From: Candidatus Aminicenantales bacterium
Lineage (GTDB): Bacteria; Acidobacteriota; Aminicenantia; Aminicenantales; UBA8522
DNA length: 64,000 nt
Assembly (NCBI GenBank): GCA_049682755.1
Contig: JBAUIH010000022.1
Span: 4,377 to 68,376 of the forward strand
Direction of reading: 5' to 3'
The notes below the pieces were generated by a model. The model was not told the origin of the DNA and made no database searches. It saw only the letters and a program-made list of their open reading frames with translations. Of this stretch, positions 19,011 to 45,297 are shown piece after piece; positions within the stretch are counted from its first letter, which is position 1; the number at the start of each line of letters is the position of its first letter. The position numbers were made by a program, and so were the translations under genes.

Positions 19011-19400
19011 ATGATGTATCCTAAAGAATTCTATTTCACCAAGGACCACGAATGGGTCAAGATCGAAGGGGATGAGGCCACCGTCGGAATCACGGATTTC
19101 GCCCAAAAACAGTTGGGCGATGTCGTCTATGTTGAGCTTCCCGCCGTCGGAGCGCCGCTCGATGTCCATCAGACGATCGGAGTGGTCGAATCGGTGAAGG
19201 CCGTTTCCGACATCTACTCTCCGGTCTCCGGAGAAGTCGTCGCCGTCAACGAAGGCCTCAATGATTCTCCCGAAACGCTCAACCAGGACCCGCACGGCCA
19301 GGGCTGGATCATCCGGCTGCGGCTCAAGAACAAAGGGGACCTGGAGAAACTGCTGACGGCCGGAGACTACGAAAAATTCCTGGAGGGCTTGGCCCCATGA
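19011..19400 (+). CDS. gcvH: Glycine cleavage system H protein (lipoyl carrier)
   Basis: The lipoyl-lysine region VESVKAVSDIYSPVSG is typical of GcvH. Confidence 0.9.
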   Translation: MMYPKEFYFTKDHEWVKIEGDEATVGITDFAQKQLGDVVYVELPAVGAPLDVHQTIGVVESVKAVSDIYSPVSGEVVAVNEGLNDSPETLNQDPHGQGWIIRLRLKNKGDLEKLLTAGDYEKFLEGLAP

Positions 19401-30857: not shown

Positions 30858-32362
30858 TGCCGGATAAATCCCTGATTATTATTGGCGCCGGCATAGCCGG
30901 GCTGTCGGCCGGATGCTACGGCCGGATGAACGGTTACCGGGTGCAAATCCTTGAGCAGGACACGCGGCCGGGCGGCCTGTGCACCTCCTGGGAACGGAAA
31001 GGCTACACCATCCACGGGAACATGGCCTTTCTCGCCGGTTCCGGTCCCGGCATCGCCTATCATCGTATCTGGCAGGAGCTGGGCGTAGTGCCGGAGATCC
31101 GGATTGTCGATTGTGAACACATGATCATCTTTGAAGGTCGGGGCGGCCCTAATTTCTATCTCCATAACGACATCGAACGTCTCGAACGGCACATGAAGGA
31201 GCTGGCGCCGGAAGACGGCCGGCTGATTGACGAACTCATCCGTGGAATCAAGGTATTCGCCCGCTACGACCTTCCGATCGAGAAGGCCCCCGAGCTTCTC
31301 GGCCTGGGGGACAAGATCAAGCTTATGACGTCCAGTTTGCCCCTGATTTGGGCGATGAGAAAATGGGGGAAGACACCTCTCCAGGATATCGCCCGGCGGT
31401 TTCAAAGCCCTATCCTGCGGGAGGCCTTACAGGAATTCGCTCAGCTTTTTTCGGAGGACCTGCCGGCGGCCTTCTTTCTGCTGAGTGTGGCCTGGAACCA
31501 CAGGAAATCTTTCGGCTATCCTGTCGGGGGCGGGCTCAAGTTCGCCCGAGCGATCGAGCGCCGCTTTCTGGAGCTTGGGGGCGGAGTCCACTACAGGTCC
31601 CGCGTGGTCAAGATAGTGGTCAAAGACGACCGGGCTGTCGGCGTCCGGCTGGAAGACGGCCGGGAATTGCCGGCCGACGACGTCATCTCAGCGGCCGACG
31701 GCCGTTCGACCATCTTTGAATGGCTTGGGGGAAAATACACCGACGCCAATATCCGGACGATCTATAAAAACTGGTCGGTATCTTCGCCCGTGATTCTTGT
31801 CGCTCTGGGTGTCTCTCGCTCCTTCCCGGAGGTTTCCTGGAGCGCCGCCGGAACGGTCTATCCCCTGGAGCAGCCGGTCAACATCGGCGGAAAAGAATTC
31901 CAGAAGCTCCGGCCGATGATCTATAACTATGATTCCACGCTGGCTCCTCCTGGCAAGACTCTGATTCGGCTGCTGATTCCCGCCGCTTATGAATATTGGG
32001 ATGCTCTGCGCGGTGCGCCTGATGCCTACAAGGCCGAGAAGGAGAAGATCGCCGAGACGATTATCGGCCTGCTCGATAAAAGATTTCCTGGGCTCGCCTC
32101 CCAGGTGGAGATGAGTGACATCGCTAGCCCGCTCACCTTCGAGCGCTACACGGGGAACTGGAGAGCCGGGATGATGGGTTGGCAGCTGACCCCCCAAACG
32201 ATTTCCAAATCCATACCAAAAACGCTGCCCGGCCTACGCAATTTCCATATGGCCGGACAGTGGGTGGAAACATTCGGCGGCATTCCCGGTTCGGCCCTTT
32301 CCGGCCGCAACGTCATCCAGTTCCTCTGCCGACGGGATAAAAAGACCTTCGTCAGCGGCTAG
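30854..32362 (+). CDS. NAD(P)/FAD-dependent oxidoreductase (phytoene-desaturase/amine-oxidase superfamily)
   Basis: Dinucleotide-binding motif IIGAGIAGLSAG near the N-terminus. ATGATG overlap with the kinase stop. Confidence 0.55.
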   Translation: MMPDKSLIIIGAGIAGLSAGCYGRMNGYRVQILEQDTRPGGLCTSWERKGYTIHGNMAFLAGSGPGIAYHRIWQELGVVPEIRIVDCEHMIIFEGRGGPNFYLHNDIERLERHMKELAPEDGRLIDELIRGIKVFARYDLPIEKAPELLGLGDKIKLMTSSLPLIWAMRKWGKTPLQDIARRFQSPILREALQEFAQLFSEDLPAAFFLLSVAWNHRKSFGYPVGGGLKFARAIERRFLELGGGVHYRSRVVKIVVKDDRAVGVRLEDGRELPADDVISAADGRSTIFEWLGGKYTDANIRTIYKNWSVSSPVILVALGVSRSFPEVSWSAAGTVYPLEQPVNIGGKEFQKLRPMIYNYDSTLAPPGKTLIRLLIPAAYEYWDALRGAPDAYKAEKEKIAETIIGLLDKRFPGLASQVEMSDIASPLTFERYTGNWRAGMMGWQLTPQTISKSIPKTLPGLRNFHMAGQWVETFGGIPGSALSGRNVIQFLCRRDKKTFVSG

Positions 32363-34026
32363 CGCAGCGTGCCTTCGTAGTGGGCGGTGAGCTGGCGCTT
32401 CCGGACGACCTCAGGTGTATAGGAGGGGAGAAGCAGTGGAGCCATACGATCCGTCTTGATCCGGGCCTTCTTCAATTCATTCTCATAGGCCGTAATGTGC
32501 TCGAGCGTCAGTTTGCCGAGGGCGACATGTCGGCTATATTCCGCAGCGGACTTGCCGGCCCGCCGACCGAAGACGTTGTAATCGAGGACTGAATTCCCCA
32601 TCAGCCGGTTCCGGCCGTGGACTCCGCCCGATGCTTCGCCGGCAACAAACAGACCGGGGATATTGGTTTCGCATTTGGCGTTGATCTCGATTCCGCCGTT
32701 CTGGTAATGGAGCGAGGGGTAGACGAGCATCGGCTCTTTAGTGATGTCGATCTGGTAGCGGATGAATTGCCGGACCATGGCCGGGAAGTTCTTGTAAAGA
32801 TACCCGGCTCCCTGGATGATCTCGATGAGCGGGGAATCCAGCCAGATGCCCCACCGGCCGCTCGGGGTCTGGACCCCGTTGTGCCTCTCCAGGCATTCCC
32901 GGATGAAGGCTGCGCTCTCGACATCGCGCGGCTCCCGGGGAAAGACGAACAGCTCCCCGAACTTGTTGACCGGCTGGCCGCCGGCACCGCGGATTTTTTC
33001 AGTGATCAGGAAGCCGGCGATCTGCTCGGGGAAGCTGGCGCCCGTCGGATGGTACTGGACCGAGTCCATGTACAAGAGCTTGGCCCCGGCCCGGTAGGCC
33101 ACGACCAAACCGTCGGCGGTCGCCCCGTAATGATTGGTCGTATCAAACCCTCGGATATGGAGCCGTCCGTAGCCTCCGGTCGTGATGATCGTGGCCTTGG
33201 CCTTGACCGTGAAGTACTCCTCGGTCTCCAGGTTGTAGAGGATGCCGCCGGCGCAGCGGCCCTTATTGTCCAGGATGAGCTCCACTGTCGGCATGAACTC
33301 AAGGACCGTAACCTTGTCGGGATGATTGCGGACCTCGTCCATGAGCGTCCGCAGAATGATGGCCCCGGTATAATCCCGGCAGGAGTGCATCCGCTTCCGG
33401 GAAGTGCCTCCTCCGTGAAGGACATACATCGTATGATCAGGGTTCTTGTCCCAGACTACCCCCAGATCTTCCAGCCATTTGACTACCCCCGGTGCATCCT
33501 CGGTCAGGGCGCGGACGAGTTCCGGCTTGTTGTCGAAATGTCCGCCGCCGATAACATCCAGATAATGCCGGGTCGGGGGATCTTGGGGTGTCACCGCCGC
33601 CTGCATCCCTCCCTGCGACATCATCGAGTTGGCGTCGCCGATACGGAGCTTGGTGGAGATGATGCTCTTGGCGCCGTTCTGCATGGCGATGATGGCCGCG
33701 GCGCAGCCGGCTCCGCCGCCGCCGATGATCAGGATATCCGTTTCGTAGTCGGGTTTTTCAAGCTGAAAGAGTTCCGGCTTTATCCGGCTGTGCGACTCCA
33801 GGATATCGGCCACTTCCGTCGTGATCTCTTCGCCCTTGTTGGGTCCGATGTGGACGACACGGCGTGATCCTTTCCTGTAATCGGGATGGAACTTATTCAG
33901 CACATCTTCCCGCTCTTCAGCGGTCATCGACGGGAAGACAGGCTTCCCCGATTTTTGGATCTCCAGCCGTTTAGGCCTTGTCTGCTCAACAAGATTCAGG
34001 GATTCTTTCATGTATTCTGGGTACAT
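32359..34026 (-). CDS. Fumarate reductase / succinate dehydrogenase flavoprotein-family subunit (FrdA-like), with a roughly 100-aa N-terminal extension
   Basis: FAD motif IIGGGGAGCAAA. FrdA/SdhA active-site signatures HYQNGGI (cf. HYTMGGI) and QYHPTG (cf. QFHPT). Last gene of the 13-gene operon. Confidence 0.7.
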   Translation of the reverse strand: MYPEYMKESLNLVEQTRPKRLEIQKSGKPVFPSMTAEEREDVLNKFHPDYRKGSRRVVHIGPNKGEEITTEVADILESHSRIKPELFQLEKPDYETDILIIGGGGAGCAAAIIAMQNGAKSIISTKLRIGDANSMMSQGGMQAAVTPQDPPTRHYLDVIGGGHFDNKPELVRALTEDAPGVVKWLEDLGVVWDKNPDHTMYVLHGGGTSRKRMHSCRDYTGAIILRTLMDEVRNHPDKVTVLEFMPTVELILDNKGRCAGGILYNLETEEYFTVKAKATIITTGGYGRLHIRGFDTTNHYGATADGLVVAYRAGAKLLYMDSVQYHPTGASFPEQIAGFLITEKIRGAGGQPVNKFGELFVFPREPRDVESAAFIRECLERHNGVQTPSGRWGIWLDSPLIEIIQGAGYLYKNFPAMVRQFIRYQIDITKEPMLVYPSLHYQNGGIEINAKCETNIPGLFVAGEASGGVHGRNRLMGNSVLDYNVFGRRAGKSAAEYSRHVALGKLTLEHITAYENELKKARIKTDRMAPLLLPSYTPEVVRKRQLTAHYEGTLR

Positions 34027-34037
34027 CGGCAGCTCCT

Positions 34038-34793
34038 TTATTCCGTATCCCGGGCGTAATATCTCTTTTTCAGCTCATCCCGGTTCATGACCATCAGCTC
34101 TTTATATTCCTTGTCGAACTTCTTATCTTTCATATCCCGGAGCCTTTTCTCGAGCTCGGGGCTCTTGGGGGACAGGTAGCGCCCGTAGAGCCTCCGGCCC
34201 AGTATCCCGACGTTGTAGTGGACGATCTCGGCCGGGCAGCGGATGGCACAGAGGCCGCAGCTCAGACAGTCGAAGCTCAGGTCCATGACCTTCTCGATAT
34301 CGCCCCGGATGGCCGCCTGGATATAGTCCATGACCTCAAGGCTCTGGGGACAGGCCTTGGTGCAGGTATTGCAGGCGACACAGCGGAAAATCTCCGGGTA
34401 GAGAACCTGAAAGGCGGTGACGTCAGGCGGGAGTTTCTCGATATCATAGACGGGCTTTTGGGCGGGGATGACCGGCAGCTGCGACAGCCACATGCCCTCC
34501 TCGACGAGCGTCGTGCAGGCCAGGCCGGTGTATATTTTATATTCGCCGGGAAGGCGATAGACGGTTGCGCAGGCGCCGCAGAATCCTTCCCGGCAGCCGG
34601 CCCCCCGCTTGATCTGGTAGCCGGCGTATTCGATGGCCCCCATGATGGTGGCTTCGGCGGGGACCCTGTGGGCCTTGCCCATGATATAGACAGTGACCAT
34701 CTTTTCAGCCGCGGCTTTTTTTTCGGTCGCAGGCTTCCGTGGCTTTGCGCTCTTGGGTTTTTTTCTGGCTGGTACTTTCTTTCTTGGCGTCAT
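34038..34793 (-). CDS. SdhB/FrdB-like iron-sulfur subunit with Lys/Pro-rich N-terminal tail
   Basis: 2Fe-2S motif CREGFCGAC and two Cys clusters (CVACNTCTKACP, CLSCGLCAIRCP). The N-terminal tail PRKKVPARKKPKSAKPRKPATEKKAAAEK comes before the MVTVYIMGK core. The ATG at 34793 is preceded by AAGGAGA. Confidence 0.65.
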   Translation of the reverse strand: MTPRKKVPARKKPKSAKPRKPATEKKAAAEKMVTVYIMGKAHRVPAEATIMGAIEYAGYQIKRGAGCREGFCGACATVYRLPGEYKIYTGLACTTLVEEGMWLSQLPVIPAQKPVYDIEKLPPDVTAFQVLYPEIFRCVACNTCTKACPQSLEVMDYIQAAIRGDIEKVMDLSFDCLSCGLCAIRCPAEIVHYNVGILGRRLYGRYLSPKSPELEKRLRDMKDKKFDKEYKELMVMNRDELKKRYYARDTE

Positions 34794-34825
34794 CTCATCT
34801 CCTTCTCATTCAGACCGTTCGAGCC

Positions 34826-35650
34826 TCAATACTCCTGCGGCAGCGTCTTGAGCTCCGCCCAGGAGTAAACCGGGCCGTCCTTGCAGACGTAATGAAAACC
34901 GATATTGCAGCGGCCGCACTTGCCGATGCCGCACTTCATCTTGTTCTCGACCGTGGTGTAGATCTGTTCGTCCTCGAACTTGAGATCTTTGAGGTTCTTG
35001 ATGACGAACTTGATCATGATCGGCGGCCCGCAAGTAATGGCGATCGTGCCGGCGGGGGAGGGTTTCTTGTCCATGACATTGGTCGGCACGAATCCGATAA
35101 ACTCTTTCCAATCCGGCTCGGCCACGTCGATGGACAGATGGACGGGCATCTGACTCTTCAGTTCCCGCAGCTCGTCCTTGAAGACGATGTCCGCCGAGGT
35201 CCGGGCTCCGTAGATCAGGCTCAGGTCGCCGAATTCTTTGCGGCGAAGTAGCGCTGTCTGGACGATCGACCAGAGCGGCGCCAGCCCGATGCCGCCGCCG
35301 ATGAACACCAGGTTTTTCCCCTTCCAATCGTCGATCGGAAACCCATTCCCGTAGGGGCCGCGGATGCCGATGAGGTCTCCGGCCTCCATATCGTGGAGGG
35401 CGGCCGTGACCCGGCCCGAACGGAGGATACTGAACTGCATGAAGTCCTTGGCCAGCGGCGAGGAGGAGATGGAGATCATCGCTTCCCCCTTGCCGAAAAC
35501 GGACAGCATGGCGCATTGCCCGCAGCGATAGTCGAAGCGGCCGCCGTTGACCAGCTCGGTGCGAAACGTCTTGACCGCCCGGGCGCCGCCGACCTCTTCT
35601 TTGACCTGGATGATCTTGGCCAGTCTGGGGAGATAGACGTTAGGCTCCAT
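34826..35650 (-). CDS. FAD/NAD(P)-binding oxidoreductase with C-terminal 2Fe-2S (PyrK/HydG/AsrB/FlxA-like)
   Basis: Ferredoxin-reductase-type fold, about 270 aa, with a C-terminal cysteine cluster CGIGKCGRC...C. Confidence 0.6.
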   Translation of the reverse strand: MEPNVYLPRLAKIIQVKEEVGGARAVKTFRTELVNGGRFDYRCGQCAMLSVFGKGEAMISISSSPLAKDFMQFSILRSGRVTAALHDMEAGDLIGIRGPYGNGFPIDDWKGKNLVFIGGGIGLAPLWSIVQTALLRRKEFGDLSLIYGARTSADIVFKDELRELKSQMPVHLSIDVAEPDWKEFIGFVPTNVMDKKPSPAGTIAITCGPPIMIKFVIKNLKDLKFEDEQIYTTVENKMKCGIGKCGRCNIGFHYVCKDGPVYSWAELKTLPQEY

Positions 35651-36722
35651 GGTCCCTCACCTTGTCTAGGACTTTGATGATATCGATCCCCACGGGACAC
35701 ATGGTGATGCAGCGGCCGCAGCCCACGCACATGAACTTGTCGTAGACCTGGACGAAATACTGGAACTTGTGGAGCAGCCGTTGCCGCAGCCTCGAGGCCT
35801 TGTCGGGCCGGGGGTTGTGTCCCGAAGAGTGCATGGTGAAATCGGGGAATTGACAGGTGTCCCAGGTGCGAACCCTTTTTCCCCGGAGGGGAGTGGTGTC
35901 GATGATCTCATCGTTGATATCGAAACAGTGGCAGGATGGGCAGAGGTAGGTGCAAATGCCGCAGCGCAGGCAGCTCATCGCTTCCTCATCCCAGAAAGGG
36001 GAGTCGAACATGGTCTTGAGTTTCTCCGAGACCGCCCTGGCCCCTTTCAATTCGCGTTTGATCTTTTTCTCCGACTCGGTATGGATGACCTTTACTTTCT
36101 TCCTATCCTCCGGCTTCGCTTCCTCGAAGAGGCCCTTGGCGGCGTTGATAAGCGCTTCTCCCTTCGCGGTCAATGAGCGGACATAGTACTTGTCGCCGAG
36201 GTCCGTCAGCAGAATGTCTGATCCCTCCTCGGCATGAGGAGAGCCTTCCACCGAGGTGCAAAAGCAATTGTCCGATGGGGGAGGGGTGCAGGCCAGAGAC
36301 ACGAGGGTCGTTTGGTCGCGGCGCTTCCAGTAGTAAACGTCCTTGGGCTCGCTGGCAAAGACTTCGTCGAGCAACCAGGCAGCCTTAGCTTCACAGGGCC
36401 GCACTCCGAAGACAACGATTGGCTCGGCCGAAGGGAGGACCTCTTTCAGCTCGAGGGTTTCCGTGTTTCCCTCGAGAGATTTGGAAAATTCAAGAAGGAC
36501 CTCATTCTGGGGAAAGAGGATCTTCTTCGGGGGAAGAGTGGTCTGGAGGGTATCCAAAACGATGCCGTCCCCGTCCGCTTCGGCGTAGTTCCAGCGGCCC
36601 TCAGTGTCGTTTTTGGGGAGGTAGATTTTCCAGGACGTCAGTTTCTTGACCCATTGGGGAAAGTCCTTCTTGGTAAGCGTTTTTTCCATTATTCTACCTG
36701 ATAAAATCTTGAGGATCGTCAT
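35640..36722 (-). CDS. 4Fe-4S dicluster protein (HydB/AsrA/FlxB-like)
   Basis: Two ferredoxin motifs, CLRCGICTYLCPSCHC and CVGCGRCITMCPVG. The real start may be the internal MEKTLTKK near 36689. Confidence 0.5.
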   Translation of the reverse strand: MTILKILSGRIMEKTLTKKDFPQWVKKLTSWKIYLPKNDTEGRWNYAEADGDGIVLDTLQTTLPPKKILFPQNEVLLEFSKSLEGNTETLELKEVLPSAEPIVVFGVRPCEAKAAWLLDEVFASEPKDVYYWKRRDQTTLVSLACTPPPSDNCFCTSVEGSPHAEEGSDILLTDLGDKYYVRSLTAKGEALINAAKGLFEEAKPEDRKKVKVIHTESEKKIKRELKGARAVSEKLKTMFDSPFWDEEAMSCLRCGICTYLCPSCHCFDINDEIIDTTPLRGKRVRTWDTCQFPDFTMHSSGHNPRPDKASRLRQRLLHKFQYFVQVYDKFMCVGCGRCITMCPVGIDIIKVLDKVRDHGA

Positions 36723-37725
36723 CCCGGAAGCTGGAGATCAGGGCCGGAAGGTCGGGGTCGAACCCGACTTCATAGTCAAAGAGCTCTTTGGCTTCCTTCT
36801 CCAATTTCTTATTGAGGAGCCGGAGGGGGATGTCGAGGGGGCAGACGCGTTCGCATTCGCCGCAATCGATGCAGCGGCCGCCGAGATGGATGGCCCGGAC
36901 GAGATGATAGATCATGTTTTCGGACGGGGCCGCCGACCGCTGGATCCATTTGATCCGCCGGGCCTTCTCATCGGCCGTGGTGTCGGCGCTGACGGCCAGT
37001 TGGATGCTGTCGACAACGCACTCGTCGCAGTAGCACATCGGGCAGGCCGACCGGCAGGCATAACAGCGGATGCACTTGTCGATCTGCTCTTTCCAGAAGG
37101 CCCACCGCTCCTCGACCGGGAGAGACTCGATCTTTTCGACTGAGCCGAACGGCTTGTCCACCGGCCGCTTCGTTTTTTCGCCGCTCAGAACATCGTAGAT
37201 AACGGGAAAATTGGCCCGGCATTCCAGGCATCTCTCGGCGAGCAGTTCTTCGACGGGGACCTCGATCTTCCCGCCAGCGGTCGTGATGACGAAGCGGTTT
37301 TCGTCGTTGACTTCGATTGTTTTCGCCTTCTTGCCCGCCAGCTTTTTGGCCAGCTTGGCATCGTCGACAACGCCGGCTTTCTCACAGGAGATGCCCAGGA
37401 TATAGACGTCGCCGCGCTCGATGAATTTTTCCTGGAGGAGGACGACGATGGCCCGGCTGTCGCATCCCTTGACGACGATTCCAACCGGCCTCTTGTCGGG
37501 CGGCTTTTCCTTTCCCTTCCGCCTTTTTTCATCGACCAGAAAACGGACAAGGTTATGGACGCAAGTGGGGTCCCAGATGAGCCTGTCCACGTCCTCCGGC
37601 TGCTTGATGAAGAGCGGAGCGGCCGGCCAGCCGTTGCTGCCCGCGCCATAGCCGATGATATATTTCACCTTGCCGTCCTGGAGAAGTTTCCTGGCTTCCT
37701 CTTTAAGGGTGTCGATCTTGGCCAT
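36694..37725 (-). CDS. FrhB/FdhB-like iron-sulfur flavoprotein-family protein (FlxC-like position)
   Basis: Cys clusters CLECRANFP and CIRCYACRSACPMCYC...CIDCGECERVCP. It lies between the mvhD and HydB-like genes. Confidence 0.45.
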   Translation of the reverse strand: MAKIDTLKEEARKLLQDGKVKYIIGYGAGSNGWPAAPLFIKQPEDVDRLIWDPTCVHNLVRFLVDEKRRKGKEKPPDKRPVGIVVKGCDSRAIVVLLQEKFIERGDVYILGISCEKAGVVDDAKLAKKLAGKKAKTIEVNDENRFVITTAGGKIEVPVEELLAERCLECRANFPVIYDVLSGEKTKRPVDKPFGSVEKIESLPVEERWAFWKEQIDKCIRCYACRSACPMCYCDECVVDSIQLAVSADTTADEKARRIKWIQRSAAPSENMIYHLVRAIHLGGRCIDCGECERVCPLDIPLRLLNKKLEKEAKELFDYEVGFDPDLPALISSFRDDDPQDFIR

Positions 37726-38147
37726 CAGGGATTTCTCCTCAGCTTGGACTGGGGGCCCAGGGGTTTCAGTTCCTTGACGAAGTCTTTGATGACCTGGGTG
37801 TACTTGGTTCCTTCCGCGGCCGAAATCCAGGACATCTGGAACCGCTCCGGTTCAAGGCCGATGTATTCCAGGAGTTTCTTGACGAGGTTCAATCTTCTCC
37901 GGGCGTAATAGTTGCCCTTGATATAATGGCAGTCGCCGGGATGGCAACCGGAGACGAGCACACCGTCGGCGCCCTTGTTGAAGGCCGAAAAAATATAGAG
38001 TGGAGAGACGCTCCCGGAGCACATTACCTGAATGGGGACGACGTTGGGCGGGTATTCCATCCGGGAGACGCCGGCCAGGTCGCTCCCGGCCGAGGAACAC
38101 CACTTGCAGAGAAAGGCGACAATCCGGGGTTCGAACTCCTCGGCCAT
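37725..38147 (-). CDS. mvhD: MvhD-like (methyl-viologen-reducing hydrogenase delta subunit) protein
   Basis: Begins MAEEFEPRIVAFLCKWCSSAG. The ATG at 38147 is preceded by GGAGGATAATC and sits 2 nt after the hdrA stop. The listed ORF extends to 38243. Confidence 0.75.
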   Translation of the reverse strand: MAEEFEPRIVAFLCKWCSSAGSDLAGVSRMEYPPNVVPIQVMCSGSVSPLYIFSAFNKGADGVLVSGCHPGDCHYIKGNYYARRRLNLVKKLLEYIGLEPERFQMSWISAAEGTKYTQVIKDFVKELKPLGPQSKLRRNP

Positions 38148-38149
38148 GA

Positions 38150-40099
38150 TTATCCTCCGAGACACGCGTTGATCATTTCGGCGACCTGATTCTGGGTGAG
38201 ATTCTTGACCTGGATGGCCGACCGCAGGCACGTGGCCGTGCAAGTGCCGCAGCCTTCGCAGAGGACCTCGTTGACCTCGACTTTTCCGTCTTTTAAGGAA
38301 AGAGCGTCATAGGGACAGACGGCGACACACATCCCGCAGCCCGTGCAGAGGTTGTTGGTGACGCTGGCCACGGTCGGCGCGTGGAACAATCTCTCCTGAG
38401 AAAGGATAACCACGGCTTTGACGGCGGCACCGCTGGCCTGGGCGACGGCCTCGGGGATATCCTTAGGAGCTTGGGCAGCTCCGGCTAGAAACATGCCGGA
38501 GGTGACGCTTTCCACCGGCCTCAACTTGGGATGGGCCTCGGCCAGAAATCCGTCCTTGTCCATGGCCAGCTTGAATTTCTTGGCCAGTTCCTGGGCGCCC
38601 TTAGAAGGGCGCATGGCCTGGGCCAAAACGACCATGTCGGCGTCGATCTCGATAGGCTTGCCGGTCAAAGTGTCCACCCCCCAAACGACGATCTTGCCCT
38701 TGTCTTCGAAGATCTTGGAGACCTTGCCGCGGAGATAGACAACGCCATCTTCCTCGACGGTCCGCTGGACGAATTCTTCATATCCTTTTCCGCCGGAGCG
38801 GATGTCGATATAAAAGACATAGGCCTGGCCGTCATGAACGTGGTGCTTGTAGAGCATGGCGTGTTTGGCCGTGTACATGCAACAGATCTTTGAGCAGTAA
38901 GCACAGTGATTCTCCGGATCTCGCGATCCGGAGCACTGGATGAAGACGACTTCTTTGGGTTCCTTGTGATCGGACGGCCGGAGGATCTTGCCCATGGTGG
39001 GACCGGAGGCCGAGAGGAGCCGTTCGAACTGGAGGCCGTCCAGGACATCGGCGTATCTGCCGAAGCCGTATTCGGCCATGTTTTCCTTCTCATAGAGGTC
39101 AAAGCCAGTGGCGACGATGATGGCCCCCACTTCTTCCTCGATGACCTCGGGCTTCTGGTCGTAATTGATGGCCTTGGGCTTGCAGACATCGGCGCACTTG
39201 CCGCAGGCGATGGTGGTGGAGATGTCTGGACAATTTTTGTCGTCGAGAGTATAGGACGCCGGAATAGCCTGGGGGAAGGGGATATAGATCGCCCGCCTTC
39301 CCGTCAGACCGAGGTCGAACTCGTTGGGCACGACGATCGGGCAGACCTTGGTGCATTCGTCGCAGAGCGTGCACTTGGCCGGATCGACATAGGTGGGTTT
39401 CTTCAAGATCTTGACCTTGAAGTTGCCGACATAGCCGGTGACGTCCTGAACCTCGCTATAGGTCATCAGCTTGATTTTGGGATGCTTGGACACCTCGACC
39501 ATTTTTGGTGTCAGAATACACTGAGAGCAGTCGAGGGTGGGGAAAGTCTCCGACAGCTGGATCATGTGGCCGCCGATGGAGGGGCTCCTCTCGACCAGGA
39601 TCACTTCGAAACCGCTGTTGGCCAGGTCGAGAGCGGCCTGAATGCCGGAAATCCCTCCGCCGACGACGAGGGCCCTCCGGGTCACAGGGACGCTCAGGGG
39701 TTCCAGCGATTCGTTCTGGCGGACCTTTTCGACCGCGGAATGAGCGATCTTGGTGGCCTTCCGGGTGGCCCGGGGCTTGTCCTTATGGACCCAGCTGCAC
39801 TGTTCGCGGATATTGGCGATCTCGCAACGGAAACTGTTGATGCCGGCGCGGTTGGCGGCGTTGCGGAAGGTCGTTTCATGGAGGTTAGGAGAGCAGCAGG
39901 CGACGACGACGCTGTCCAGTTTTTTCTCCTTGATAGCCTGCTCGATCAGGTTTTGGCCGGGGTCCGAGCACATATAAACATAGTCCTCGGAGTGGACCAC
40001 CCCCGGGTGTTTGGCCAGCTCCTCGGCGACCTTCTTCACATCCACCGTGCCGGCGATGTTGATGCCGCAGTGGCAGACAAAGACTCCGGTCCGTTTCAT
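38150..40099 (-). CDS. hdrA: Heterodisulfide reductase subunit A (FAD, multiple FeS)
   Basis: Begins VFVCHCGINIAG. Dinucleotide-binding motif VVGGGISGIQAA. Several CxxCxxCxxxC clusters. About 650 aa. Confidence 0.85.
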   Translation of the reverse strand: MKRTGVFVCHCGINIAGTVDVKKVAEELAKHPGVVHSEDYVYMCSDPGQNLIEQAIKEKKLDSVVVACCSPNLHETTFRNAANRAGINSFRCEIANIREQCSWVHKDKPRATRKATKIAHSAVEKVRQNESLEPLSVPVTRRALVVGGGISGIQAALDLANSGFEVILVERSPSIGGHMIQLSETFPTLDCSQCILTPKMVEVSKHPKIKLMTYSEVQDVTGYVGNFKVKILKKPTYVDPAKCTLCDECTKVCPIVVPNEFDLGLTGRRAIYIPFPQAIPASYTLDDKNCPDISTTIACGKCADVCKPKAINYDQKPEVIEEEVGAIIVATGFDLYEKENMAEYGFGRYADVLDGLQFERLLSASGPTMGKILRPSDHKEPKEVVFIQCSGSRDPENHCAYCSKICCMYTAKHAMLYKHHVHDGQAYVFYIDIRSGGKGYEEFVQRTVEEDGVVYLRGKVSKIFEDKGKIVVWGVDTLTGKPIEIDADMVVLAQAMRPSKGAQELAKKFKLAMDKDGFLAEAHPKLRPVESVTSGMFLAGAAQAPKDIPEAVAQASGAAVKAVVILSQERLFHAPTVASVTNNLCTGCGMCVAVCPYDALSLKDGKVEVNEVLCEGCGTCTATCLRSAIQVKNLTQNQVAEMINACLGG

Positions 40100-40728
40100 G
40101 ATTTTGCCTTTCGGGGAGCGCTCTTCTTGGGTTTGGAGACCGGCGGCTTTTCGTCCGGCTTGATCATTGTGGGAGGTTTTTCCTTTTCCTTGGCTAACAG
40201 CTCGATCCCATAGTCATAGCCCTTATCAAAAGCCCTGATATTGAGCTCAAGAAACCTCTTGGGGACGAGGCCGGGGAGGGCCTTTTTCATGGCCTCCGGG
40301 CTGACCAACTTGGTGATGGCGGTGAAGAATCCGAGCATGACCAGGTTGCCGAAGATGCGGTTGCCCATCTCCTCGGCGAAGCGGGTCGAAGGAACGCCAA
40401 AATACTTGATCTCGTCCCGCACGGGCTTGGGTTTCACCAGGTCGGTGTCATAGATGAGCGTTCCGTCGCCGCGGAGATCCGGCTCGTATTTCTCATAGGC
40501 ATCCTGAGACATGGAAACGAGAATTTCCGGCCGGGTGATGTAGGGATAAAGGACGCGCTCCTCCGAGATCACCAACTGGGAACTGCAGGCGCTTCCTCTC
40601 GCTTCCGGTCCGAAGCTCTGGGTCATGGTTCCGAACTTATTATCAAAGAGAGAAACGGCCTTGCCGGTGATCAAACCGCAGCGGATAATTCCCTGGCCGC
40701 CGTAACCCGAAAAACGGATCTCGCTCAT
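40096..40728 (-). CDS. 2-oxoacid:ferredoxin oxidoreductase gamma subunit with Lys/Pro-rich C-terminal tail
   Basis: Begins FSGYGGQGIIRCG, typical of POR/KOR gamma. The C-terminal tail is KEKEKPPTMIKPDEKPPVSKPKKSAPRKAKS. Confidence 0.75.
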   Translation of the reverse strand: MSEIRFSGYGGQGIIRCGLITGKAVSLFDNKFGTMTQSFGPEARGSACSSQLVISEERVLYPYITRPEILVSMSQDAYEKYEPDLRGDGTLIYDTDLVKPKPVRDEIKYFGVPSTRFAEEMGNRIFGNLVMLGFFTAITKLVSPEAMKKALPGLVPKRFLELNIRAFDKGYDYGIELLAKEKEKPPTMIKPDEKPPVSKPKKSAPRKAKS

Positions 40729-41594
40729 GGTTTCACTCCGTAGGGGACATATTTTTCGCCCAGGGCCTTCTGGAGATGGGCGTTCATGCAGTCAAGAAAT
40801 GTTGGCTTTTCCTTGTCCACGAACTTGCCGACGATGAGCTTGCCTTGATATTCGATGCCCACGGTACGTGTATCGGCGCCGTGCTGAATTTCAGATTGGT
40901 CATAATAGTACTTGAGCAGATTCAAGCCGTCGCCCAGCCGGTTCCGCCGGGCATACAGTGTGACACAAGGAGTGATGACCTCGATGAAAGAGAAGCCTCG
41001 CTTGGCCAGCGCCTCCTGGATGGATTTGGTGACCCTCCGGATATGGAGGGATGTCCAGCGCGCCACGTAGGTGGCGCCGCAGGTTTCGACTAAGTAGGGC
41101 AGGTTGAAGGGGTATTCGAAGTTCCCGTAGGGCGCCGTAGAAAGATTGGCACCGAGCGGAGATGTGGCGGCCACCTGTCCTCCTGTCATGGCGTAGTTGA
41201 AGTTGTTCACGCAGATGACCACGATGTCCATGTTCCGTCGGGCGGCGTGAATGAGATGGTTGCCGCCGATCCCGACGATGTCTCCGTCGCCGCTGAAGAC
41301 CACGACCTTGAGCTCCGGATTGGCCAACTTGAGCCCGGTGGCGAAGGGGATGGCCCGGCCGTGGGTGGTGTGGAAGGAGTCGAACTTGACATAGCCCGCC
41401 ACCCGCCCCGTGCAACCGATGCCGGAGACAACGGCGACCTTGTCGAGGTCGAGTTCACTTTTTTTAAGGGCATCGGCGAACGAAGTGACCACCGTGCCGA
41501 TGCCACAGCCCGGGCACCAGATGTGCGGAATCCGGTCCATTCGGAGGAAATCCTCCATCGGGTTTTTTTCTTCGGCGAGTTCCTCGCGGTTCAT
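40725..41594 (-). CDS. 2-oxoacid:ferredoxin oxidoreductase beta subunit (TPP-binding)
   Basis: WCPGCGIG region and TPP motif GDGD. Confidence 0.85.
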   Translation of the reverse strand: MNREELAEEKNPMEDFLRMDRIPHIWCPGCGIGTVVTSFADALKKSELDLDKVAVVSGIGCTGRVAGYVKFDSFHTTHGRAIPFATGLKLANPELKVVVFSGDGDIVGIGGNHLIHAARRNMDIVVICVNNFNYAMTGGQVAATSPLGANLSTAPYGNFEYPFNLPYLVETCGATYVARWTSLHIRRVTKSIQEALAKRGFSFIEVITPCVTLYARRNRLGDGLNLLKYYYDQSEIQHGADTRTVGIEYQGKLIVGKFVDKEKPTFLDCMNAHLQKALGEKYVPYGVKP

Positions 41595-42757
41595 CGGACG
41601 GCCTCCTTAATGGCTTTCAAGATATCTTCGGGATCGTGGACCCAACCCCCGCAATGAGTAACGCCGATAACCGGCGCTTGGCCGAAAGCGCAACGCTCGA
41701 CCTCGCGTCCGATCTGGCCGAGGTTGAGCTCGGGCACGACAAAAGCCTTGATTTTCCCGGCCAGCTCTTTGATTCTTTTTTCGGGGAACGGCCAGACCGT
41801 GATCAACCGTATCGTGCCGACCCTGATGCCGGCTTCGCGGGCGAGCCGGACCGCCCTGATAGCCACCCTGGAGGTGATTCCGTAGGAAATGACCACGACC
41901 TCGGCATTGTCGATCTGGTCTTCCTGCAACTCAATGATCTTATGGGCGTTCTTCCGGATCTTGTCAACGAGATGATGAACGCACCAGTCCTGGACCTCGG
42001 CATTGAGCACCGGATAGCCGCGTTCATCATGGGTGAGTCCGGTGGTGTGGAAGCGGTAGCCGTCTCCCGGCTTGACCATGAAGGGGACCAGGTCCTTGTC
42101 CGGCTTGTAGGGCAGGTACTTGTCCTTCGGCCCCTGATACCACTTCCGCTCGACCACTTCGATCTGGTCGGCCGGCGGAATGACCACTTTCTCGTGCATG
42201 TGGCCGACGCATTCGTCGGTCATGATAAACACCGGAACCCGATAAAGCTCCGCAAGATTGAAGGCCTTGATGGTCAGGTCGAAACACTCCTGAGGAGAAT
42301 CCGGGGAAAGGGCGATGATCTCGTAGTCGCCGTGAGAACCGAATTTCGCCTGCATCATGTCTCCTTGACCGGCCAGAGTGGGGAGACCGGTGGAGGGCCC
42401 GCCCCTCTGGACATTGGCGATCACGAGGGGGGTCTCCATCATCACGGCGAGGCCGATGTTTTCCATCATCAAGGAGAAGCCCGGGCCTGAGGTCACCGTC
42501 ATGGCTTTCTGACCTCCCCAGGAGGCGCCGATCAGAGCGGTTATCGAGGCGAGTTCGTCCTCCATCTGGATGAAAACCCCCCCGACCAAAGGGATCCTCT
42601 CAGAGAAGCGCTCAGCTGTTTCGGTAGAAGGGGTAATCGGGTATCCGCCAAAAAAGCGGCAGCCGGCAGCCAGCCCGCCCTCGGCGATGGCGAAGTCTCC
42701 ATCGAGATAATGGGACCCGGTCAGAACTCCTTTAGGGTCTGCTTTCACTTTTCTCAC
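41591..42757 (-). CDS. 2-oxoacid:ferredoxin oxidoreductase alpha subunit
   Basis: Region [24 protein letters not shown], typical of OFOR alpha. Confidence 0.85.
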
Positions 42758-43010
42758 CTTCTTCCTCCTCTTTTTTGAGAGTGACGAAAATCGCGAACTC
42801 CGGGCAGATGGCTTCGCAGAGCTGGCAGTAAATGCACTCGTTTTCTTTTACGACCCGGGGGGGGTGGTAACCCTTTTTGTTGAATTCCTCGGAGAGCTCG
42901 AGGACATCGCGAGGACAGTACTCGACGCAAAAGCCGCAGCCCTTGCACCTTTCCTTATGGATGTGGATATTGCCTTTTTTGGCTCTGAGATTGCCGAAAC
43001 GGATGGTCAT
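42732..43010 (-). CDS. 2-oxoacid:ferredoxin oxidoreductase delta subunit (2x[4Fe-4S] ferredoxin)
   Basis: Two ferredoxin motifs, [12 protein letters not shown] and [12 protein letters not shown]. 92 aa. Confidence 0.75.
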
Positions 43011-43017
43011 GGTTCCC

Positions 43018-43896
43018 TCAGATCAGGCCCTTTTCTTCAAGAAGCGGCCTGGGATTGACATAGTGGAGATCAAGACGAAGGTCTTTCTCTTCGCAGCCCA
43101 AGGCAATGGCCAGAAGCTGGGTGAAATAGAGGATCGGGAGACCCTTGAATCCGGAATACTTCTCGGCCGTTTGCTTTTGTCGGAAATCCAGGTTGAAAGC
43201 GCAGAGGGGGCAGCTGACCGAGACCACCTCGGCGCCGCGGTTCTGCGCGGACGTCAGAATACTGTAGGTCCGCTCAACGACATTCTCCGGTTTGTCGACC
43301 GTCTGATAGGCCCCGCAACATTCCGTCTTATAGGGAAAATCGACCGCTTCCGCCCCGAGGACGACCGCCAGGTCGTCGAGGACGGTCGGGTTCTCCATGT
43401 CGTCCAGGCCGATTTCTTTGGGGCGGACGAGGAGACAACCGTAATAACTGGCCACTTTGAGATTGCGAAGGGGCTTTTTGACTTTCTTGCCGATCGTCTC
43501 GAACGAGACATCCTCCCGGAGCAACTCCAGCAGGTGCCGGACCTTCACATCCCCCTGATAGGCGATCTTTTCCTCGTCCATGAATTTATGGATCTTCTCC
43601 AGGCTCTCCGGATCGGCCTTGATCCGTTCGTTGACCCGCTTGAGGGTGTTGTAGCACATCGCGCAGAGGGTTATGACCGAGTCCGCCTGTTCTTCCTTGA
43701 CCCGAATCAGGTTGCGGACGGAGGCGAGATGGCGCATCAGGTCGTCCGTGGTCAGAGAGTAGACGGTTCCGCAGCAGTTCCAGCGTGAGAGTTCCTTGAC
43801 GTCGACCCCCAGCTCGCGCAGCGCACAGAGAGCGGAGTCCTCAAAATTTTTGGCGTTGCTCTTAAGAGTGCACCCTGGATAATAGCTGACTTTCAT
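43018..43896 (-). CDS. hdrB: Heterodisulfide reductase subunit B (two CCG domains)
   Basis: Begins [13 protein letters not shown]. Cysteine patterns CCG...C repeated twice (NCCGTVY...CAMCY; ECCGAYQ...CPLCAFN). Confidence 0.8.
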
Positions 43897-43954
43897 GGGA
43901 ATCCCTTCTTCGGATGAGGTCGGATGATCGACGCATCATTTATGATCGAAATTA

Positions 43955-44362
43955 TCAAGACGTGAATTTCCGGAAATTGCTGATCAGGGCGATGGCCGGG
44001 ACGGAAGCCTTTTCCTCGTTGCTGAGTTTGGACACCTCGACATGGTCCTTTCTCTTGCGGAGCAGGACCTGGCGGACCGCTTCCATGACCTCGGCAATCT
44101 TGATCCCCTTGGGACAGCGCACGTTGCAGGTATAGCAGGACGCGCAGACCCAGACCGACTTGGATTCGAGGAGCTCGTCTTTGAGGCCGAGCTGGGCGTA
44201 GCGGATAACCTGGTTAGGGAGGATGTCCATGTCACCGACGGCCGGGCAGCCGGCCGAGCACTTGCCGCACTGGTAGCAGGCCGAGAGCTTCTGGCCGCTG
44301 ATCTCTTCGATCTTCTTCACAAAATCATCGCGGATTGTGTTCCTGGAGATGTTCGTTCTCAT
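43955..44362 (-). CDS. hdrC: Heterodisulfide reductase subunit C (2x[4Fe-4S])
   Basis: Motifs CYQCGKCSAGCP and CASCYTCNVRCP. First gene of the operon. Confidence 0.75.
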   Translation of the reverse strand: MRTNISRNTIRDDFVKKIEEISGQKLSACYQCGKCSAGCPAVGDMDILPNQVIRYAQLGLKDELLESKSVWVCASCYTCNVRCPKGIKIAEVMEAVRQVLLRKRKDHVEVSKLSNEEKASVPAIALISNFRKFTS

Positions 44363-44445
44363 TGTACCTTGTCTCTTTCAAGTTGGAGAGGATCGAGATG
44401 GGATGGAAATGGATTTCCGAACCCAAAAAGACCCTCCAGTAAAAC

Positions 44446-44467
44446 ATAATTTTCTTCACCTGTCAAG
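44446..44467. promoter_or_regulatory. 22-bp near-perfect palindrome TTTTCTTCAC-CT-GTCAAGAAAA upstream of hdrC, containing a TTGACA hexamer on the coding-orientation strand
   Basis: The inverted repeat (9 of 10 arm positions pair) was read directly. It lies 85-105 nt upstream of the hdrC start and overlaps the stop of the alpha/beta hydrolase gene. Confidence 0.3.
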
Positions 44468-45259
44468 AAAATGAGGCGACGGCTCGCCGTTGAAGAAAAG
44501 GATGATTTCCTGAATGTCTTCCTGGGGAAATCGGTTCCGGAAATAGTCCTCTGTTACCTCTAAAGGATAATGATCGATGCCGACGAGGACAACCTTCAAG
44601 CGCTCGACGTTCTCCTCAAAAAGCTTCAGCAGGGGGCCGTTCTTGACGGTCCTGTCCGAGTGGCTGAGGATCAGGACGTGGGGCCGCTTATGGAAGCGGC
44701 AGGTCCGGCGCTCGCTGAGGATGATCCGGGCGGTCTCGAAAAACGTTCGTCCTTCCATCTGGCTCAGCAGGGTATCGATCCGTTCCGCGGGATAATCACT
44801 GTACCAGTGAAAGACACGATGAAAAAAACGATGGTTCCAGACCTTCGTCGATAGATCAAAGACCAGCGCCAGGCGGACGAGAAAGGCGTAGGTCGATTTC
44901 TTGATCGGTCCCAGGTTGAGCCAACGTGAGCTGAGATAAGGTGTAATGGCGACAACCCCATGGCAGCGTTCATCGGGGGGGAGATGAGAGATAACGGCGA
45001 ACCCGAAGGATATGCCGCCCAGAAGGTAGCTCTCCAACCCGAGATCATCAATCCGGCGCCGGACATAGCCGGCGTAGTTTTCCAGGGAGACTTCGGTCAG
45101 AGGCGGGATATGATTGATGAAGCCGGGGAGGTCGACGAAATGGACCTGGAAAAAACGCCCCAAGTAGTCGATCAGCCCTCTCAAGACCAGGCTATTCGTC
45201 AAGAACGCGTTGACCAGAACAAGGTTGTCTTTATGGCATGGAGTTGAATGAGGCCTCAT
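44456..45259 (-). CDS. Alpha/beta-hydrolase fold protein
   Basis: The likely start is ATG 45259 (MRPHSTPCHKDNLVLVNAF...), with core LLGGISFGFA. The listed ORF runs on to 45535. Confidence 0.45.
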   Translation of the reverse strand: MRPHSTPCHKDNLVLVNAFLTNSLVLRGLIDYLGRFFQVHFVDLPGFINHIPPLTEVSLENYAGYVRRRIDDLGLESYLLGGISFGFAVISHLPPDERCHGVVAITPYLSSRWLNLGPIKKSTYAFLVRLALVFDLSTKVWNHRFFHRVFHWYSDYPAERIDTLLSQMEGRTFFETARIILSERRTCRFHKRPHVLILSHSDRTVKNGPLLKLFEENVERLKVVLVGIDHYPLEVTEDYFRNRFPQEDIQEIILFFNGEPSPHFLDR

Positions 45260-45297
45260 GAAAAGGCCCCATTTATTAACATAGCGGGCGGGCGAAG

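Follow-up and report, generated by a model that had tools for sequence, protein, structure and literature searches.

The window analysed here, a stretch of 64,000 nucleotides from a Candidatus Aminicenantales bacterium (contig JBAUIH010000022.1), carries on its minus strand a closely packed block of 13 open reading frames (ORFs) spanning about 12 kb (positions 32359-44362). Read 5' to 3' on that strand, the gene order is hdrC, hdrB, korD, korA, korB, korG, hdrA, flxD/mvhD, flxC, flxB, flxA, frdB and frdA. An earlier note on this DNA, made from the letters alone, had proposed the block and its gene labels. The block is real, as all 13 ORFs are present at this span, and profile searches of each ORF against Pfam and NCBIfam revealed domain contents that agree with the labels. 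In this report, we describe the encoded proteins, their relatives in other genomes and the fumarate-reducing, electron-bifurcating system that they may form.

Within the block, the longest overlap between neighbouring genes is 29 nt and the widest gap is 58 nt. As anticipated in the earlier note, several junctions are ATGA overlaps, namely korA/korB, korB/korG and korG/hdrA, to which the mvhD/flxC junction adds a TGATG. The other junctions are overlaps of 26, 29 and 11 nt and gaps of 7, 11, 32 and 58 nt; the statement that all junctions overlap or are shorter than 35 nt therefore holds everywhere except between hdrC and hdrB, where the gap is 58 nt. The program-made ORF for mvhD, which begins with a TTG at 38243, is overlong. 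The ATG at 38147 is the likelier start, as it lies 2 nt past the hdrA stop and has GGAGGA ahead of it.

A consensus scan for transcription signals found promoter-like sites at the expected frequency (4 observed versus 4.5 expected, hence not enriched), and a modest excess of terminator-like sites across the scanned region as a whole (23 observed versus 14.5 +/- 3.3 expected). No promoter- or terminator-like site was located in any intergenic gap of the block, and all minus-strand terminator-like matches inside it are within coding regions. The scan is crude and the promoter consensus of the host is not known, so this is weak negative evidence only. To this extent, the prediction that the 13 genes constitute one operon, which internal promoters or terminators would split, is supported. 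At its 3' end, the operon abuts a convergent plus-strand gene (30854-32362). Upstream, a 93-nt intergenic region (44363-44455) is the probable promoter region. A weak match of the form TTGACA-17 nt-TTTACT, absent from the list produced by the promoter scan, occurs about 100 nt 5' of the hdrC ATG, and a terminator-like hairpin (44489-44475) is located at the end of the gene upstream of the operon.

The Hdr proteins form a complete HdrABC-MvhD module. The hdrC-like gene (43955-44362; this and all other operon genes are on the minus strand) encodes 135 amino acids with 8 Cys residues and two [4Fe-4S] motifs. It matches Pfam Fer4_8/9/17 and, under the cutoffs, the NCBIfam models for HdrC (TIGR03290, 88 bits) and the QmoC N-terminus. 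The hdrB product (43018-43896; 292 amino acids) has two Pfam CCG domains, which provide the ligands of non-cubane [4Fe-4S] clusters, and scores 157 bits to the HdrB structure 8RVU_b and 183 bits to the NCBIfam HdrB model. HdrA (38150-40099; 649 amino acids, 31 Cys) is a full-length, methanogen-type flavin and iron-sulfur (FeS) subunit with the presumed bifurcating flavin adenine dinucleotide (FAD) site. Over its whole length it aligns with 5ODC_A, a bifurcating HdrA of known structure (726 bits), and its score of 827 bits to the NCBIfam HdrA2 model is under the equivalog cutoff. Such scores below the methanogen equivalog cutoffs, which apply to all three HdrABC proteins, are expected of a bacterial homologue. 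The flxD/mvhD gene (37725-38147) encodes the [2Fe-2S] connector, 140 amino acids from the ATG at 38147, with a Pfam FlpD match of 180 bits.

Three further genes complete a putative FlxABCD module, an assignment that is based on fitting domain content and not on Flx-specific models or Desulfovibrio sequences. The flxC-like gene (36694-37725) encodes an FeS protein of 343 amino acids and 16 Cys residues that matches only Fer4 motifs in Pfam and no NCBIfam family. Its C-terminal 120 amino acids resemble FdhB of Fdh-Hdr supercomplexes (7BKB_E, 77 bits), the subunit that docks on Hdr in 7BKB, and its orthologues have a weak FrhB_FdhB_C match. The flxB-like FeS protein (35640-36722) is of the sulfhydrogenase beta/AsrA type, on the basis of Pfam Fer4_22 (117 bits), NCBIfam ShyB/HydB/AsrA models (150-206 bits, under cutoff) and the beta subunit of P. 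furiosus sulfhydrogenase I (9NEZ_B, 187 bits). The flxA-like gene (34826-35650) encodes a FAD- and NAD(P)H-binding [2Fe-2S] protein with NAD_binding_1 and DHODB_Fe-S_bind domains and scores of 156-237 bits to NCBIfam HydG/AsrB/PyrK models; it is the putative point of electron entry.

Between hdrB and hdrA, korDABG has the architecture of a four-subunit 2-oxoacid:ferredoxin oxidoreductase (OFOR). The delta subunit with two [4Fe-4S] clusters (korD, 42732-43010) matches Pfam Fer4 and reaches 76.5 bits with the NCBIfam model OGOR_delta (cutoff 125). The alpha gene (korA, 41591-42757) has a GTG start after GGAGG, and its product contains POR_N and PFOR_II domains. KorA exceeds the cutoff of the generic alpha-subunit model PRK08659 (562 versus 411 bits) and is below that of the 2-oxoglutarate synthase alpha model (388 versus 579 bits); in the PDB, it matches 1YD7 at 394 bits and 8YS5, a 2-oxoglutarate synthase alpha subunit, at 295 bits. 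The beta subunit (korB, 40725-41594), which would bind thiamine pyrophosphate, has a TPP_enzyme_C domain and 233 bits to the OGOR beta model (cutoff 364). The gamma gene (korG, 40096-40728), with an ATGA overlap at each end, matches Pfam POR and PRK08537 (188 bits). The 2-oxoglutarate-specific (OGOR) models are the best or near-best matches of KorA, KorB and KorD, yet all are under cutoff.

The last two genes of the operon encode a pair related to fumarate reductases. The frdB/tfrB-like FeS subunit (34038-34793; 251 amino acids) has a Lys-rich tail, an SdhB-type CxxGxCGxC [2Fe-2S] motif and two 4Fe-4S motifs; Pfam reports only Fer4, and a weak SdhB alignment covers residues 66-188. The frdA/tfrA-like flavoprotein (32359-34026; 555 amino acids) has a FAD_binding_2 domain over residues 97-480; its FAD and capping domains are preceded by a 93-residue N-terminal extension and followed by only a short C-terminal tail. 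The flavoprotein has no match in Pfam to Succ_DH_flav_C, the C-terminal domain of Sdh/Frd flavoproteins, and no membrane subunit is encoded in the operon. Its best NCBIfam match is the methanogen TfrA (NF004900, 326 bits versus a cutoff of 718), in an alignment that spans model positions 5-427 of 546, as the C-terminal part is absent from the flavoprotein. Scores are lower for the SdhA/FrdA model (270 bits; all Sdh/Frd models are under cutoff) and for NadB models (212-248 bits; TIGR00551 gives 248 versus a cutoff of 453). In an AlphaFold2 model made from a 40-sequence alignment (predicted template modelling score 0.79; a shallow alignment had given a predicted local distance difference test score of 51.5), the N-terminal extension forms two helices and a small hairpin. 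The best Foldseek match of the model is E. coli FrdA (1KF6_A), which confirms the FrdA/SdhA fold and leaves the extension unexplained.

We aligned the window flavoprotein with 81 full-length homologues from the fetched loci and one truncated fragment (83 rows). Seven fumarate-site residues of E. coli FrdA (H232, T244, E245, R248, R287, H355 and R390) correspond to H326, T342, E343, R346, R367, H440 and R474 of the window protein. All seven are retained in the 82 full-length sequences (H326 in 82 of 83 rows), and the sole deviating or gapped row at each conserved site is the truncated fragment. An HPD motif in the N-terminal extension is invariant in the same alignment, and the extension (FHPDY...GPNxGE) is conserved in the family. 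By contrast with E. coli FrdA, whose His44 carries the covalent 8-alpha-N3-histidyl FAD, the aligned residue is Asn (Asn133 in the window protein) in 82 of 82 sequences. In FrdA H44 mutants and in soluble fumarate reductases, non-covalent FAD suits fumarate reduction and disfavours succinate oxidation. Because the His that bonds FAD is invariably lost, the direction favoured for this family is fumarate reduction. The earlier note had labelled the protein FrdA-like and regarded AprA or NadB as the identities that would undo this label. Both were rejected on the basis of scores, neighbouring genes and the constant SdhB-like partner, and the label is further consistent with the retained fumarate-site residues.

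The FeS subunit has no CCG domain in Pfam and NCBIfam searches, and HdrB is therefore the sole possible thiol/disulfide site. The model of methanogen TfrB is covered piecewise by three window proteins, the FeS subunit aligning to positions 22-86, HdrC to 119-242 and HdrB to 262-465. For this reason, HdrC, HdrB, FrdB and FrdA together look like a split version of methanogen TfrAB. In a separate observation, a 727-residue protein (P0122) is a natural fusion in which an SdhB-like FeS subunit forms the N-terminus of an extended flavoprotein.

A search of a representative library recovered the extended flavoprotein family as a handful of 50%-identity clusters, followed by ordinary Sdh/NadB relatives. 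A scan of one genome per species then provided 80 loci, whose flavoproteins are 53-85% identical to that of the window and whose neighbourhoods were searched by tblastn with the 13 window proteins. Bacterial loci are from Aminicenantes, Beta- and Gammaproteobacteria, Ignavibacteria, Cloacimonadota, Marinisomatota, Fibrobacterota, WOR-3, Chloroflexota, Desulfobacterota, Spirochaetota, Bacillota, Nitrospirales and Gemmatimonadota, and archaeal loci are from Thermoplasmatota, Theionarchaea and Bathyarchaeia. The family thus occurs in more than 15 phyla, archaea included. An identical (100%) flavoprotein is present in a Candidatus Aminicenantales metagenome-assembled genome (MAG), and more than 120 sequence clusters are 86-93% identical; the predicted Hdr-Frd module is very abundant in Aminicenantes. 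An exact-sequence search with the window flavoprotein yielded a single 3.1-kb contig, which added no genomic context. In 78 of the 80 loci, frdB is beside the flavoprotein gene, and the other two loci are truncated contigs. Modules were counted in those 34 loci that extend 8 kb or more in both directions. Among these, frdB is present in 34, hdrB/C in 27, hdrA in 25, mvhD in 21, kor in 13, flx in 12 and all modules in 8. The commonest core across loci is hdrC-hdrB-frdB-frdA.

Adjacency of the kor genes to Hdr/Frd genes extends to at least six distinct lineages, with several gene orders (loci are numbered with the prefix L). The kor genes are located between hdrB and hdrA in Aminicenantes and Proteobacteria, an order shared by L008, L009, L082 and L083, upstream of hdrC in L012 and L019, directly upstream of hdrA in the Thermoplasmata loci L022 and L059, and downstream of frdA in L030, L048, L052, L063-L067 and L077. 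Another Thermoplasmata locus (L062) has a second kor-hdrA-flx unit downstream of frdA. In an Anaerolineae MAG (L054, 2470-13922), the genes are split: korG is upstream of hdrA with a 4-nt overlap and korD-korA-korB is downstream of frdA, so that kor genes bracket the Hdr/Mvh/Frd genes. A junction of korG with hdrA, often a 4-nt overlap, is shared by loci from Aminicenantes, Proteobacteria, Thermoplasmata and Anaerolineae. Because the linkage recurs, rearranged, in at least six lineages, the association is not an accident of one lineage. A chance insertion of kor confined to a single lineage, the outcome that the earlier note had regarded as fatal to the OFOR-hdr association, is accordingly rejected.

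Some loci have NiFe hydrogenase subunits in place of Flx (L012, 11689-14177; L022, 5378-7874; L048, 408-2824; L054, 6300-7829). Pfam matches were obtained for small and large subunits in the first three and for the large subunit only in L054. This replacement implies that H2-driven variants exist. Known Hdr supercomplexes swap input modules likewise, and interchangeable Flx and Mvh inputs fit their modular logic. Three loci from three different phyla have genes of C4-dicarboxylate metabolism just downstream of the frd/kor genes, namely a class I fumarase (L052, 14527-16257), a SucC-like succinyl-CoA synthetase beta subunit with a DctM transporter (L032, 11738-14925) and malic enzyme (L014, 11690-13144). 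These neighbours support fumarate and succinate as the substrate pair.

Other features of these loci were also observed. One locus (L070, 1-11644) has an operon of the Aminicenantes type in which hdrB to flxA are 65-88% identical to the window and frdB and frdA are divergent (55% and 53% identity), which suggests replacement of the fumarate-reductase module. HEAT-repeat proteins are encoded in two related clusters, directly before hdrC in L048 (3356-5212; 618 amino acids) and upstream of the hdrC-hdrB region in L052 (3447-5402; 651 amino acids). In the window, Lys/Pro-rich low-complexity tails are found in FrdB (residues 1-32, 34698-34793) and in the C-terminal ~30 residues of KorG (40096-40190). 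Similar tails occur in most other checked Aminicenantes loci (L005, L007, L015 and FrdB of L002), not in other phyla, and may be tethers.

The earlier note did not recognise this gene composition as a described system, and in this respect it was mistaken. Rubin-Blum et al. 2019 reported korABCD and tfrAB interspersed with flxABCD-hdrABC in reductive tricarboxylic acid (TCA) cycle clusters of tubeworm symbionts (Ca. Endoriftia), Thioflavicoccus mobilis and a groundwater gammaproteobacterial MAG, and already proposed direct bifurcation for the cluster (PMC6315080, main text and Text S1 Note 3). The location of kor between hdrB(C) and hdrA is stated by Mitchell et al. 2024, who also found the orthologous Endoriftia cluster to be co-expressed, intergenic regions included (PMC11636981, Extended Data Fig. 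3 for the gene order). A 2023 preprint noted the cluster in Bipolaricaulia (bioRxiv 10.1101/2023.11.26.568696). Literature on Aminicenantes metabolism that we searched contained no mention of the operon.

The published cluster and the window have the same 13 gene families (tfrAB, hdrABC, flxABCD and korABCD); in both, korDABG separates hdrB from hdrA, and flxDCBA follows hdrA. Our assignment of orthology is based on an acl-linked gammaproteobacterial MAG (L083) and a Thiodictyon locus rather than on Endoriftia or Thioflavicoccus sequences. The order in L083 is acn, aclAB, tfrB, tfrA, rubrerythrin, hdrC, hdrB, kor, hdrA, flxD, flxC, flxB and flxA, with korD not among the called genes and an unannotated gap where korD would be; the core is unchanged in the Thiodictyon locus. 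Identity between the window flavoprotein and its proteobacterial counterparts is 69-73%, and in a neighbour-joining tree these counterparts group as sister to the Aminicenantes sequences. For L009, identities to the window are 72% (flavoprotein), 68% (HdrA) and 68% (KorA), and its flavoprotein is 73-76% identical to other Aminicenantes sequences. The arrangements differ in that proteobacterial tfrBA is at the 5' end, followed by rubrerythrin, and the cluster lies within a group of TCA genes that includes aclAB and acn, whereas the window has frdBA at the 3' end and no rubrerythrin. The window operon is an orthologue of the published, biochemically uncharacterised cluster, in a new and very abundant lineage. 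As a side observation, an ORF of the Cas12f1-like TNB (TnpB) type is located between the aconitase and ATP-citrate lyase genes of L083 (1907-2545), which would fit activity of mobile elements close to a cluster believed to have been acquired horizontally.

On balance, we lean toward the view that the operon encodes a cytoplasmic flavin-based electron-bifurcating system that couples oxidation of NAD(P)H to fumarate reduction and to carboxylation by Kor. Electrons from NAD(P)H would enter at FlxA and reach the HdrA flavin by way of FlxB, FlxC and FlxD/MvhD, and HdrA would split each pair. The high-potential electron would move via HdrC and the non-cubane HdrB clusters, first to the SdhB-like subunit and then to the predicted non-covalent FAD of the flavoprotein, where fumarate would be reduced to succinate. 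The low-potential electron would exit via the ferredoxin domains of HdrA to ferredoxin or directly to KorD, and KorDABG would then carboxylate succinyl-CoA reductively to 2-oxoglutarate. The couple of succinyl-CoA plus CO2 with 2-oxoglutarate has a potential of about -520 mV. Those of NAD(P)H and fumarate are -320 mV and +33 mV (PMC5861303). By our own calculation from these standard potentials, the reaction of 2 NADH with fumarate, succinyl-CoA and CO2 yields about -30 kJ/mol. Comparative genomics strengthens the case for the coupling of NAD(P)H, fumarate and ferredoxin/2-oxoacid that the earlier note had put forward. Its mechanism, that is, assembly into a single complex, bifurcation, the Kor substrate, the flux direction and electron transfer without a free thiol intermediate, we infer from sequence and synteny.

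Several observations weigh against this interpretation. Kor is missing from ~60% and Flx from ~65% of the well-covered loci, and the full 13-gene machine is therefore one variant among several. KorA, KorB and KorD are under the 2-oxoglutarate-specific NCBIfam cutoffs, so that 2-oxoglutarate is a putative substrate of Kor. Kor has also retained a ferredoxin-like delta subunit and could draw on free ferredoxin in the ordinary way, and HdrB keeps both CCG motifs, which would allow thiol/disulfide chemistry. Differential expression of tfrAB in Endoriftia differs from that of the rest of the cluster (PMC11636981), and our literature search found no biochemical characterisation of any cluster member. 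A more ambitious proposal can be made, in which the 13 proteins would form one hard-wired particle, powered by NAD(P)H, that reduces fumarate and fixes CO2 on its own, with low-potential electrons handed from HdrA straight to KorD/KorAB without soluble ferredoxin and high-potential electrons led through the HdrB clusters into FrdBA without a thiol, the Hdr-Frd core would be an ancient module of more than 15 bacterial and archaeal phyla with interchangeable Flx or Mvh inputs, and the system would be the main route to 2-oxoglutarate in many uncultured heterotrophs. We consider the conjunction of these claims doubtful, and offer it tentatively.

As one alternative, Flx-HdrABC could bifurcate electrons from NAD(P)H to ferredoxin and a disulfide (a small heterodisulfide or a DsrC-like protein), with the thiols re-oxidised by a separate thiol:fumarate reductase, by analogy with Tfr and Hdr in methanogens. 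This is one of two options discussed in PMC6315080 Text S1 and also in PMC11636981, and it agrees with TfrA as the best family match of the flavoprotein and with the intact CCG motifs of HdrB. However, FrdAB alone would have no thiol-oxidising site, since its FeS partner misses the CCG half of TfrB, and the operon contains a single HdrB and no DsrC-like gene. Moreover, hdrC-hdrB is directly beside frdB-frdA in most lineages, which reads as a split TfrAB and not as two enzymes. Because the FeS partner lacks CCG and only one HdrB is encoded, direct transfer is likelier than a free thiol shuttle, which we regard as rather unlikely. A looser arrangement, in which Flx-Hdr, the OFOR and a soluble fumarate reductase are independent enzymes that share a promoter because they serve one pathway and communicate only through free ferredoxin and pyridine nucleotides, could explain the delta subunit of Kor, the absence of Kor or Flx from many loci and the fact that no Kor-Hdr fusion proteins were seen among the surveyed loci. 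It is an unlikely explanation, given that the flavoprotein and its FeS partner come with no dedicated donor module (they have neither an NAD(P)H domain nor a membrane anchor nor a CCG domain) and adjoin hdrCB in most lineages, that the korG-hdrA junction recurs in distant phyla and that kor brackets the whole cluster in L054.

The same proteins might also operate in reverse, with low-potential electrons from oxidation of 2-oxoglutarate (by Kor) and high-potential electrons from oxidation of succinate merged at HdrA to reduce NAD(P)+. Bifurcating complexes are reversible in principle, and confurcation would let a strict anaerobe run part of the TCA cycle oxidatively; the literature describes Aminicenantes and Cloacimonadota as fermenters or syntrophs, and succinate oxidation is a known bottleneck in syntrophy. 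Nevertheless, we find this direction quite improbable: the Asn that is invariant in place of the FAD-bonding His predicts an enzyme of a kind that generally oxidises succinate poorly, the reaction would be endergonic by ~30 kJ/mol at standard potentials in our calculation, and the orthologous proteobacterial cluster is found with ATP-citrate lyase (L083; PMC6315080). Finally, the flavoprotein could act on L-aspartate, as NadB does, or on some other enoate, and the operon could then serve a different pathway. Its scores under every NCBIfam cutoff, including 212-248 bits to NadB models, would allow this, and NadB has the same active-site residues. Yet TfrA and SdhA/FrdA outscore NadB, the SdhB-like partner is always adjacent and once fused, neighbouring genes elsewhere encode fumarase, a succinyl-CoA synthetase subunit, a C4-dicarboxylate transporter and malic enzyme, and the closest structural match of the predicted model is E. 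coli FrdA. We know of no NadB with an SdhB-like partner, and a substrate other than fumarate is in our opinion very improbable.

The favoured bifurcating system resembles several known systems in part. FlxABCD-HdrABC, the NADH dehydrogenase/heterodisulfide reductase of Desulfovibrio vulgaris, compared by description, has the same seven protein types (FlxA, FlxB, FlxC, FlxD/MvhD, HdrA, HdrB and HdrC). According to the account of Ramos et al. 2015 given in PMC6315080, its proposed high-potential acceptor is DsrC and its cluster is linked to alcohol dehydrogenase. The window differs in that Kor and a fumarate-reductase pair are inserted or attached. The logic is shared with methanogen MvhAGD-HdrABC, TfrAB and KorABGD, in which fumarate reduction regenerates the Hdr acceptor and 2-oxoglutarate synthase is driven by ferredoxin that Hdr bifurcation has reduced. 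The two systems have closely homologous HdrA, HdrB and MvhD, and some relatives of the window operon use Mvh-type hydrogenase subunits. However, the methanogen enzymes are separate, are linked by free coenzyme M (CoM-SH) and coenzyme B (CoB-SH), and include TfrB as one fused protein with CCG, whereas in the window the TfrAB pieces are split and lie in one operon. To our knowledge, organisms with the window-type operon do not make CoM or CoB.

Hydrogenobacter thermophilus reportedly has a soluble, five-subunit, NADH-dependent fumarate reductase with Hdr-like FeS subunits, said to have been described by Miura et al. in 2008. This enzyme is reportedly cytoplasmic, functions in the reductive TCA cycle and takes up NAD(P)H electrons at a GltD-like subunit, with HdrA, MvhD and Flx all absent. 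Compared with this description, the window operon has no GltD-like gene in Pfam and NCBIfam searches. The SdhABE enzymes (type E succinate:quinone oxidoreductase/methylmenaquinol:fumarate reductase) likewise pair a CCG protein with SdhAB, and window HdrB scores 166 bits with the SdhE model of type-E fumarate reductase. They are membrane-associated and quinone-linked and have a flavoprotein with the C-terminal domain, in contrast to the window system with no anchor, a truncated flavoprotein and predicted non-covalent FAD.

Other scanned parts of the window encode unrelated functions, such as a glycine cleavage system, GlyS, ArgS, a Ser/Thr kinase, a BNR protein, an amine oxidase, a membrane spermidine-synthase-like protein and a PAS histidine kinase. 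The genes gcvH, gcvPA and gcvPB (19011-22191) are ~10 kb from the operon and not linked to it; they fit an amino-acid-using lifestyle. At 44456-47817, where the AT skew flips to +0.11 to +0.17, an 839-residue minus-strand ORF with a spermidine-synthase domain is probably a polytopic membrane protein, and an overlapping ORF (44456-45535) has no Pfam match. No aclAB, acn, idh, mdh or other TCA or citrate-lyase gene was found among the scanned ORFs of the window, of which 50.6-64 kb was largely unscanned. Because ATP-citrate lyase is absent within that scope, the operon in Aminicenantes likely serves a reductive branch to 2-oxoglutarate and/or energy-conserving fumarate reduction, and not a full reverse TCA cycle.

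This survey widens the known distribution of the cluster and sharpens the mechanistic hypothesis. What is new is the wide range of phyla, the N-terminal extension, the complete set of fumarate-site residues, the invariant Asn, the constant FeS partner, its lack of CCG, the repeated linkage to kor in differing positions and the alternative Flx and NiFe inputs. Of these, the FeS partner without CCG, together with a single HdrB, and the invariant loss of the His for covalent FAD go beyond the published proposal. If the hypothesis is true, fumarate would join crotonyl-CoA, heterodisulfide and similar compounds as a high-potential acceptor of flavin-based electron bifurcation. Ferredoxin-dependent carboxylation of succinyl-CoA, the hardest step, would then be paid for by fumarate reduction, the easiest, by using only NAD(P)H or H2, and both carbon fixation by the reverse TCA cycle and anaerobic synthesis of glutamate precursors would be cheaper. 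The module is not confined to tubeworm symbionts, as it is also found in Aminicenantes, Cloacimonadota, Marinisomatota, Chloroflexota, Desulfobacterota, gut Clostridia, Thermoplasmatota and Bathyarchaeia, among others, and a biochemical answer would alter metabolic models of many uncultured anaerobes.

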